DNA from: Escherichia phage vB_EcoM_IME392 | DNA length: 64,000 bases | Sequence record: MH719082.1 | Direction: 5' to 3' (one strand) | In this document: positions 7,722-8,693 of the stretch, piece by piece | How the letters are laid out: every line of letters starts with the position of its first letter | Numbering within the stretch: the stretch's first letter is position 1 | Program-made: the position numbers and the translations under genes | The notes under the pieces: generated by a model | What the model saw: the letters and a program-made list of their open reading frames with translations, nothing else | The model's database searches: none | What the model was told of the DNA's origin: nothing

Positions 7722-7883
7722 TTAAATTTTACATGCATCTCCGCAGTCGTCGTCACCAGGCTGGCTGATAACTTCGTCTACGTTAACCATGCGATCTTCT
7801 ACACGACGAGATGCCTCGTCTAATTCTTCCTGAGATGGGAGATTGGAGAAATCCAATTCTTCACCAGATTTATTGCCTGACAT
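7722..7883 (-). CDS. small acidic protein
   Basis: start at internal ATG 7883 with GGAGTGA RBS; 53 aa, Asp/Glu-rich. Confidence 0.4.
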   Translation of the reverse strand: MSGNKSGEELDFSNLPSQEELDEASRRVEDRMVNVDEVISQPGDDDCGDACKI

Positions 7884-8352
7884 AATCACTCCACACGTTA
7901 ATAACTTCTTTACCACAGGATTTAGCATAGGCTACACAGTTACCTGTGCCACCCGAACTACCATCCCATAGGGCTAATCCCATCTGACTACGGTTAACCA
8001 TGTATCGGTTACGCACCATCATCTTGAAGGAATCATACCCAGGCTCGGACACTATAATTGTGCGACGACTTTTTCTGCATAGCTCAGTCCATTTTTCTGT
8101 ATCTGCAGATCGCCACATTTTGGGTTGGTCAATCATAGGGATTGTTGCAAAGTATGGTATTCCGAGATTGGCACATGCCTGAGCACATGCCATATCCCAT
8201 CCTAACGCCATACCTATAAACCAGCAGTCCACGCTATTCTTAGCTGTAAGCTCCTGGATGTGATGTTCGGCAAACTGGGTAAGATGATCATGGCTAAAGT
8301 TATCCCATCCACCCAGCTTATCTGGCCTATGACCAGTCACGAACATAAACAT
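7870..8352 (-). CDS. SLOG-family (YpsA/DUF1273-like) Rossmann-fold protein
   Basis: 160 aa; FVTGHRPDKLGG ... RNRYMVNRS ... WDGSSGGTGNC pattern recalled from YpsA-like proteins. Confidence 0.5.
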   Translation of the reverse strand: MFMFVTGHRPDKLGGWDNFSHDHLTQFAEHHIQELTAKNSVDCWFIGMALGWDMACAQACANLGIPYFATIPMIDQPKMWRSADTEKWTELCRKSRRTIIVSEPGYDSFKMMVRNRYMVNRSQMGLALWDGSSGGTGNCVAYAKSCGKEVINVWSDYVRQ

Positions 8353-8693
8353 TACTTCTTGCCCATCTTAGCCTGCATAGCACGGACGGTATCCATGGCG
8401 CTGGCCAATTTGGCTGAAGTATCCTGCGGACCATCTTCTTCTAGCTGTTTCTTAAGGGACTCCATACGATCAGTAGTACCCTTAGTATCCATCTCGATTA
8501 ATTCGTTGATGGTCGAACCACCCACGTTAGGTAACTTACCCAGCTGAGTAAGATCCTTAACTTCTGGGATTTTAACATGAAGTTGAATAGACTGGGATGC
8601 TCTCGCGAACGACCCAGCACGACGATTGTCTCCTACCTTATTGTACAGGGAAGATAGGTTACCCAGGAACGTAATGATATCAGCAGTTTTCAT
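8352..8693 (-). CDS. helix-hairpin-helix DNA-binding protein
   Basis: start at ATG 8693 (ORF track begins at an upstream TTG); GGAGGA RBS; LGKLPNVGGSTINELIE HhH-like; motif copy 16 bp upstream. Confidence 0.5.
   Translation of the reverse strand: MKTADIITFLGNLSSLYNKVGDNRRAGSFARASQSIQLHVKIPEVKDLTQLGKLPNVGGSTINELIEMDTKGTTDRMESLKKQLEEDGPQDTSAKLASAMDTVRAMQAKMGKK

Follow-up and report, generated by a model that had tools for sequence, protein, structure and literature searches.

A YpsA-like SLOG protein and a stand-alone HhH domain beside the packaging module of an Escherichia phage: probably co-expressed neighbours rather than an obligate pair

When two overlapping genes lie back to back with a phage packaging module, do they form a functional pair or are they neighbours through gene order, and what might each of them do? 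The question is raised by a minus-strand locus of Escherichia phage vB_EcoM_IME392 (record MH719082.1), of which a stretch of 64,000 nt was analysed (hereafter the window). Here a gene for a small HhH protein is followed directly by a gene for a YpsA-like SLOG protein, and the original prediction, made from the letters alone, regarded the two as translationally coupled and the pair as a candidate for a nucleotide-signal or DNA-processing function in early infection. We find that both proteins are new members of known, biochemically uncharacterised families and, judging by comparative sequence evidence, that they are probably co-expressed through gene order and do not constitute an obligate pair.

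In an EP_H11-like coliphage with a genome of about 111 kb, the locus appears to open the non-structural, leftward arm as its first transcription unit: three overlapping genes lie behind a lineage-specific promoter-like motif and diverge from the terminase/portal module. The three open reading frames (ORFs; coordinates from the window) run on the minus strand in the order HhH, SLOG, acidic ORF. The HhH gene (8355..8693, ATG at 8693, stop at 8352-8354) encodes 113 aa, among them LGKLPNVGGSTINELI, and has a GGAGGA Shine-Dalgarno sequence 8 nt upstream of its ATG; an alternative TTG start at 8735 was rejected, since it falls within the motif and the ATG at 8693, with its Shine-Dalgarno sequence, fits the N-termini of homologues. 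The SLOG gene (7873..8352, ATG at 8352, stop at 7870-7872) encodes a protein of 160 aa that begins MFMFVTGHRPDK and includes WDGSSGGTG. Its ATG shares 1 nt with the TAA stop of the HhH gene, as TAATG, and this overlap is kept both in Escherichia phage EP_H11 (OP688485, 111 kb), which is ~93% identical across this stretch and whose genes under the match are all annotated 'hypothetical', and in a more divergent metagenomic relative, L014. Such an arrangement permits translational coupling, in agreement with what had been proposed. The third gene of the operon (7725..7883, ATG at 7883, stop at 7722-7724) shares 14 nt with the SLOG gene; a GGAG stands 6 nt before its start codon, and its product is an acidic protein of 53 aa (isoelectric point, pI, 4.05). 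A scan found no minus-strand terminator inside the operon, an Rfam scan of the whole window returned two tRNAs and no known RNA element at the locus, and the base composition of the SLOG gene gives no sign of recent acquisition (GC 0.42-0.46 throughout). The proposed boundary with the structural module is borne out as well: the operon diverges from a plus-strand module that includes the large terminase subunit (9367..11193), and GC skew changes sign at about 8.5-9 kb.

What kind of protein is the SLOG? It passes the Pfam YpsA family PF06908 (29.7 bits versus a gathering threshold of 27.7, E 7.7e-07, residues 4-136) and belongs to phrog_289 in PHROGs (E 2.4e-13), while an NCBIfam search at the SLOG/HhH locus yielded no significant family. 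Single-sequence phmmer searches of SLOG or HhH against PDB sequences gave nothing useful, so that profiles were required; the SLOG family profile finds 2NX2, the structure of Bacillus subtilis YpsA, at 7.5e-11 and ShosA/DprA at 5e-5. An AlphaFold2 model (pLDDT 95.5, pTM 0.91) is Rossmannoid, with seven strands alternating with helices, and its best Foldseek match is again 2NX2 (E 9e-11, TM 0.84), followed by ShosA, DprA, TM1055, the molybdenum-cofactor carrier protein and LOG, all of them from the SLOG superfamily. The YpsA/SLOG identity originally proposed thus stands, with YpsA first in the profile search, ShosA/DprA next and no unrelated fold. The family is large: a word-indexed search recovers >1200 clusters of homologues of 150-180 aa, most of which carry a precomputed PF06908 match and many of which are named 'phage-like protein YoqJ', and tblastn places the family in 223 phage records, from phages of Streptomyces, Erwinia, Bacillus, Microbacterium, Klebsiella and other hosts. 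In an alignment of 45 sequences the invariant residues are T6, G7, H8, R9, P10, K12, G47, M48, G51, D53, P72, W80, N115, G131, G134, G135 and T136, which, in the secondary structure of the model, mostly fall at the C-terminal ends of strands or at the starts of the adjoining helices.

The closest known relatives are YpsA itself and YoqJ of prophage SPbeta (PF06908/COG4474), with which the phage protein has in common the fold, the single-domain size and a predicted nucleotide pocket. The GxD/E signature at the helix start after strand 2 is present as G51-W52-D53, which aligns with the LGVE of YpsA (G53-V-E55), and W80 aligns with YpsA W87; in YpsA the signature residues and W87 are functionally important by mutagenesis (PMC6459960). 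The differences are nonetheless considerable. Identity to YpsA is 16%; the position of the conserved first-loop aromatic of YpsA (TGYKP) is held by the invariant His8 (TGHRP), an imidazole rather than Tyr/Phe; and the DPEKEGS of YpsA gives way in the phage protein to a GGT loop (WDGSSGGTG) of the DprA/LOG type. Two features of YpsA proper are also lacking, as the phage operon contains no gpsB and the region before strand 2, with the YpsA residues G42, E44 and W45, is not conserved. We therefore file the protein in the phage YoqJ-like clade, as a single-domain member of the YpsA family, and not in YpsA proper. It fits neither DprA nor LOG. DprA (PF02481) is its second Pfam match, at 15.3 bits versus a gathering threshold of 29.6, and at 160 aa it consists of the Rossmann domain alone. 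The catalytic motif of LOG (cytokinin riboside 5'-monophosphate phosphoribohydrolase) is PGGxGTxxE, with a catalytic Glu; the corresponding SSGGTGNCVAY has no acidic residue, its N138 and C139 being nearly invariant, and LOG structures are weak fold matches to the model (E about 2e-3).

The HhH identity, also part of the original prediction, can be refined: the protein is a stand-alone domain resembling the 8-kDa N-terminal domain of family-X DNA polymerases (PolX), without the polymerase. Taken alone it reaches 20.3 bits against Pfam HHH_8 (PF14716), below the gathering threshold of 30, and it has only four close homologues in a set of 5.8 billion proteins. The stand-alone homologue in the Acinetobacter phage Ab1-TPeters (37% identity by tblastn), however, passes HHH_8 at 45.1 bits, the homologues P0126, P0127 and P0128 bear precomputed HHH_8 matches, and tblastn aligns HhH with the N-termini of phage family-X polymerases at 1e-5. 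HMMER, run exhaustively against 1.84 billion cluster representatives, recovers 184 relatives, many of them stand-alone proteins of 90-125 aa and others PolX enzymes of ~320 or 570 aa. HhH is a member of a modest viral and metagenomic family of stand-alone proteins, 100-120 aa in length. A profile of the four closest homologues found nothing in PDB; one built from 29 stand-alone members finds the lyase domain of Pol lambda at 2.6e-6 and Pol beta at about 1e-5. In the AlphaFold2 model (pLDDT 86.5 overall, 93-97 for residues 1-80) the domain spans residues 1-86, with a C-terminal helix at about 92-110 modelled at low confidence, and the 50 best matches in a fold comparison with PDB are, without exception, 8-kDa domains of Pol beta or Pol lambda. 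Superposition gives a root-mean-square deviation of ~1.9 A (range 1.7-2.3 A over 75-83 columns, with outliers at 3.7 and 4.4 A). The resemblance covers the helical fold over about 75-80 residues, the hairpin (L54-P-N-V-G58, with LPNVGGST matching LPGVGTKI) and helix B (SFARA matching AYRKA), and several structural residues are retained.

Where HhH departs from the polymerase domains is in its stand-alone length with an extra C-terminal helix and in its lyase residues. Both the 29-member alignment and one made by MAFFT that includes phage PolX proteins place Glu64 in the column of the Schiff-base lysine (Lys72 in Pol beta, Lys312 in Pol lambda) and Ser60 in that of Lys68, which binds the 5' phosphate in Pol beta. 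All of the five nearest homologues have Glu64, as do most of the 29 family members, and Ser60 is invariant in the family. HhH is accordingly unlikely to be a deoxyribose-phosphate (dRP) lyase, and it is not a family-X polymerase, given that 113 aa leave no fingers, palm or thumb and that the next gene encodes the SLOG. With the lyase lysines replaced it is probably a non-catalytic DNA binder, most likely one that recognises the DNA backbone, nicks or gaps. Other short viral proteins of this kind are on record, namely a 'PolX NT domain' of Halogranum virus HGTV-1 and a 162-aa protein of Vibrio phage Va2 (L010, 1474-1962). The latter is named a 'beta-like DNA polymerase' and consists only of an 8-kDa-like domain and a tail, so that it is no polymerase and the name looks like an annotation error; the same kind of misannotation could affect the HhH family.

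Having established what the two proteins are, we can ask whether they belong together. In Ab1-TPeters, whose terminase is 59% identical to that of the window, indicating a phage lineage broader than E. coli, the HhH gene is again the first to diverge from the packaging module. The gene that overlaps its stop is a different one, though: in Ab1-TPeters, as in the metagenomic relatives L012/L013 and L015, it encodes a protein of 170-180 aa with no assigned function, not a SLOG. The possibility that the Ab1-TPeters protein is a divergent SLOG was rejected, as it has neither a Pfam match nor similarity and is homologous to another window gene, at 2322..2861 on the minus strand (179 aa, no family match), which is also the homologue of the gene after HhH in L012 and L015. 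In the window this gene is displaced by 5.5 kb from HhH and adjoins the upstream side of a superfamily 2 (SF2) helicase gene (679..2319). Its displacement marks the 5.5 kb in between, which hold the SLOG gene, the acidic ORF, a phrog_624 gene, two tRNAs and several small ORFs, as a variable insertion zone in this branch, and the stretch between HhH and the 0166-like gene indeed differs between the window phage and Ab1-TPeters. The 179-aa protein, rather than the SLOG, may be the true conserved partner of HhH.

The same picture emerges from the side of the SLOG. Homologues were examined in six other phage contexts (two T7-like phages, a Jedunavirus, two Casjensviridae and a contig with DNA polymerase A, a 5'-3' exonuclease and ribonucleotide reductase), and in none of the six is there an HhH neighbour; outside the window the adjacency was seen in EP_H11 and L014 only. 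With another gene after HhH in the distant relatives and no HhH beside the SLOG elsewhere, gene order rather than a conserved functional pair probably accounts for the arrangement, and the pair as a functional unit is a part of the original prediction that finds no support here. The comparison suggests that HhH is a core gene of the lineage, always first next to the packaging module, and that the SLOG is accessory.

Upstream of the operon lies a motif which was proposed to drive it, and which is confirmed as a recurrent element. The eighth copy counted along the plus strand, AAACCGCTCTTTTGTACGGTCGAAAGGCTGTTAA at 8713-8746 on the minus strand, is situated 19 nt upstream of the HhH ATG. The core occurs 12 times in the window, always on the minus strand, versus 0.27 copies expected by chance; the 14-nt cores start at 2865, 3851, 5316, 6843, 7026, 7084, 7689, 8713, 55685, 56760, 59479 and 60876, two of them (7026 and 7084) standing in tandem, 58 nt apart. 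The motif is bipartite and about 37 nt long: CCGCTCTTT, 7-8 variable nt, then TCGAAAGGCTGTTAA. The consensus of the 12 window copies reads CCGCtcTTT, 7-8 variable nt, TCgAAAGGCTGTTAAA and then nTG, the second block also being written TCGAAAGGCTGTTAAA followed by nTG, and AAAGGCTGTTAA is invariant in all 12. Counting window and EP_H11 together, there are roughly 24 copies of the motif with GCTGTTAA. Where a downstream start codon is recognisable the motif ends 19-35 nt upstream of it; copies precede non-structural operons only, with none inside the structural module at 8.8-52 kb. The seventh copy (7689..7722, minus strand) comes directly after the last stop of the HhH-SLOG operon and heads the next unit.

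Is the motif a promoter? The orthologous copies in EP_H11 retain both blocks with a different spacer, positions 1-45000 of that genome hold 12 more near-exact cores of which 11 are on the coding strand, and the HhH homologues of L014, L011 and Ab1-TPeters are likewise preceded by a related core. Blocks kept with a varying spacer, a bias to the coding strand and presence upstream in relatives are what a promoter would look like, and we infer that it is one. Ahead of the HhH gene a scan with the sigma-70 consensus turned up no promoter, and the motif is unlike that consensus. EP_H11, for its part, encodes two proteins (29676-31244 and 26582-28096) that jointly cover the beta' domains of a multisubunit RNA polymerase. 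The motif may therefore mark a middle class of transcripts, and the polymerase that uses it as a promoter may be a multisubunit enzyme of the phage itself or the host's after modification by the phage. These two observations also make the assignment of the operon to early infection uncertain.

What, then, might the SLOG do? In the model its Rossmannoid pocket appears intact, with the TGHRP loop, the GxD signature, Trp80, Asn115 and the GGT loop in place, and the protein most likely binds, and possibly hydrolyses, a small molecule derived from a nucleotide. An ADP-ribose derivative would be the leading candidate for the ligand, handled as part of phage counter-defence; the gene is situated in a stretch of the genome that is variable and apparently accessory. 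Most viral SLOGs are of the YpsA type; they are found in company with NADAR, Macro, Nudix and DUF4326 proteins, and have been predicted to sense or cleave immune signals derived from ADP-ribose (Iyer, Burroughs, Anantharaman and Aravind 2022, PMC9503650). The earlier suggestion that this family is linked to nucleotides or ADP-ribose derivatives accords with that prediction, which is computational as far as the SLOG goes. A scan of 29 other non-structural proteins of the window found a NADAR protein (57625..58092, 84.7 bits; 461 phage records have NADAR homologues) and a DUF4326 protein (55702..56025, 63.3 bits), both on the minus strand in motif-preceded operons, the latter adjoining an Rv2179c-like 3'-5' exoribonuclease (56015..56728, minus strand, 67.9 bits); no Macro or Nudix protein was seen among the 29. 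It is mainly this presence of a stand-alone YpsA-like SLOG, NADAR and DUF4326 in one genome, all in non-structural operons as in the published pattern, that leads us to rank an ADP-ribose derivative first, and the invariant polar pocket (His8, Arg9, Lys12, Asp53, Asn115, Thr136) points in the same direction.

Taken as a whole, the proposal that an operon behind a lineage motif expresses a non-catalytic DNA binder and a protein that binds a nucleotide derivative, with ADP-ribose compounds as the leading candidates, and that the two are not obliged to work together has, in our estimate, an even chance of being correct. Several observations weigh against it. The literature searched offers no ligand, activity or phenotype for the phage SLOG clade (a search on DUF1273 returned nothing on phages, and one on SLOG and anti-defence no experimental work on this clade). 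The SLOG gene is neither fused nor adjacent to the NADAR and DUF4326 genes, in contrast to the published network, but lies about 47 kb away from them in the window. In four of the six contexts examined elsewhere the SLOG gene is beside or near genes for primase/helicase, DNA helicase, 5'-3' exonuclease or DNA polymerase, and a DNA-related role would account for this at least equally well (a fifth has genes for a pyrophosphatase and a DNA methyltransferase within 3 kb). DprA and ShosA, in which the same pocket takes up single-stranded DNA, have motifs similar to its SG.A.G.D and SGGT. Finally, the tight overlap with HhH, conserved in three genomes, leaves room for a local functional link. A more specific version, in which the SLOG destroys or sequesters ADP-ribose-derived immune signals (for example Thoeris gcADPR or His-ADPR) or related toxic nucleotides as an enzyme or sponge and works together with the NADAR and DUF4326 proteins that this genome also encodes, and in which, separately, a lyase-dead HhH serves as the lineage-core binder of DNA ends, nicks or gaps needed at the start of the replication programme, seems to us unlikely.

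The chief rival to an ADP-ribose ligand is that the SLOG acts like DprA, as a single-stranded-DNA-binding or recombination-mediator protein of the replication module that may cooperate with HhH at nicks, gaps and ends, an explanation to which we accord a real, if minority, share of our belief. ShosA is the DprA-like antitoxin of the ShosTA defence system, and DprA/ShosA structures (8ZVA, 9VZO, 3UQZ) have in common with the phage protein the SLOG fold, the motifs just named and the profile match at 5e-5. Fold matches 3-10 are DprA structures, many homologues carry a precomputed PF02481 match and some have been labelled ssDNA-binding (single-stranded-DNA-binding) or DprA-like by their depositors; to these come the replication-gene neighbours in other phages, the adjoining HhH as a predicted DNA binder and a helicase in the same arm. 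Yet the DprA score lies well under the gathering threshold, and the phage protein is a bare Rossmann domain that lacks the extra domains of DprA and ShosA (318-331 aa), which are tied to dimerisation and RecA binding (PMC12961424). The invariant His8, Asp53 and Asn115 seem better suited to a pocket for a small molecule or for catalysis, the family has a median pI of only 7.7, and in small phage genomes replication genes are non-specific evidence as neighbours. By analogy, the protein might instead be an orphan antitoxin-like factor directed against host systems that combine a phosphoribosyltransferase (PRTase) with a SLOG, such as ShosTA. ShosA is its best non-YpsA profile match and its second fold match, a cellular YpsA branch is paired with PRTases (PMC6459960), phages carry orphan antitoxin-like enzymes (NADAR/DarG-like) against DarTG1 (PMC11257639), and the gene sits in a variable accessory region. 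We nevertheless hold this to be improbable: PADLOC defence-system models give no match to the SLOG at E <= 0.1, the activity of ShosA requires single-stranded-DNA binding, dimerisation and contact with RecA (PMC12961424) and the phage protein is without the ShosA flanks, and the family is spread over phages of Streptomyces, Bacillus and Microbacterium hosts.

Two further explanations strike us as more improbable still. One would restore the pair: the SLOG would cut an N-glycosidic bond in DNA that is modified or carries ADP-ribose, and HhH would process or bind the resulting 5' end, much as in base excision. The conserved 1-nt overlap in the window, EP_H11 and L014 speaks for such a pair, as do the N-glycosidase activity of LOG-type SLOGs (PMC9503650), the nature of the 8-kDa domain, which in Pol beta and Pol lambda serves as the dRP lyase and binds the 5' phosphate, and the presence in the genome of a NADAR protein, which in other systems reverses ADP-ribosylation of DNA bases. 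Against such a pair, none of the more distant relatives of HhH or SLOG has the two genes side by side, the position of the lyase nucleophile is Glu in HhH and in most of the stand-alone family, and the SLOG has GGTGNC, without the Glu of PGGxGTxxE. The other explanation, of about the same standing, is that the protein manipulates host physiology or cell division. B. subtilis YpsA, its best relative in both structure and sequence, blocks FtsZ assembly when overproduced, and the same idea has been raised for the prophage protein YoqJ (PMC6459960). The analogy suffers from the fact that the YpsA division residues G42, E44 and W45 are not conserved in the phage family (nor, likewise, in YoqJ; PMC6459960), that gpsB synteny is specific to Firmicutes and that this phage infects E. 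coli.

The SLOG family is among the commoner uncharacterised accessory families of phages, and if the ADP-ribose-signal explanation is true phrog_289 would be a large unrecognised class of anti-defence proteins. The present phage could serve as a test case, infecting E. coli as it does and having SLOG, NADAR and DUF4326 in one genome. For HhH, the result is that the PolX 8-kDa module travels among phages as a small protein of its own, without the lyase lysines, which is of modest interest for the evolution of DNA-repair domains. Neither finding will surprise a specialist; the main value of the analysis is that it corrects the idea of HhH and SLOG as a dedicated pair.

A number of observations concern the remainder of the locus and the window. 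The acidic third gene of the operon ends in DDDCGDACKI, is an annotated coding sequence in EP_H11 and is 82% identical in L014, with no other homologue in the phage collection; it is possible that it encodes a DNA-mimic or inhibitor-like small protein. On the other side of the divergence, the plus-strand ORF before the terminase was mechanically called from GTG 8833, and the EP_H11 annotation and a Shine-Dalgarno sequence favour ATG 8890 (to 9363, 157 aa). The gene just ahead of the terminase in Ab1-TPeters encodes a protein with 35% identity to its product, which has no family match and is a candidate small terminase. The 525-aa plus-strand ORF after the terminase (11194..12771) has no PHROG match and is probably the portal, named so by its position alone. 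In EP_H11, the intervals 38110-40053, 18921-22208, 87-2174 and 3080-6315 encode an NAD+-dependent DNA ligase, a family-A DNA polymerase, an SbcC/Rad50-like ATPase and type II topoisomerase subunits, with any of which an HhH protein that binds nicks or gaps might work.

Among the minus-strand genes farther along the window are a group associated with nucleotide pools, comprising a dCTP-deaminase-like protein (53701..54324), a dUTPase (54592..55062) and, grouped with them, a RyR-domain protein (55059..55439), as well as a cell-wall hydrolase (52917..53279) and an endolysin-like protein (61151..61717). The interval 5300..7100 has no convincing long ORFs; it includes four copies of the motif, and minus-strand genes for tRNA-Met (5645-5720) and tRNA-Arg(TCT) (6190-6265) lie within these coordinates. 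The unit headed by the seventh motif copy encodes a 180-aa protein (7062..7604, minus strand; includes HPCAKWVRES) that matches phrog_624, 'DNA binding protein', at E 6.7e-42. Searches of Pfam, NCBIfam and PDB sequences gave no match for it, and it shows weak local similarity to CDS0164 of Ab1-TPeters (E 0.003); nothing supports its being a DNA glycosylase, an assignment that was considered and rejected. A few nucleotides downstream of the same motif copy, at 7667..7683, there is a perfect 6-bp hairpin (CGGAGG aatta CCTCCG), which, in the 5' leader of the 180-aa gene, may act as a 5' stabiliser or processing site.

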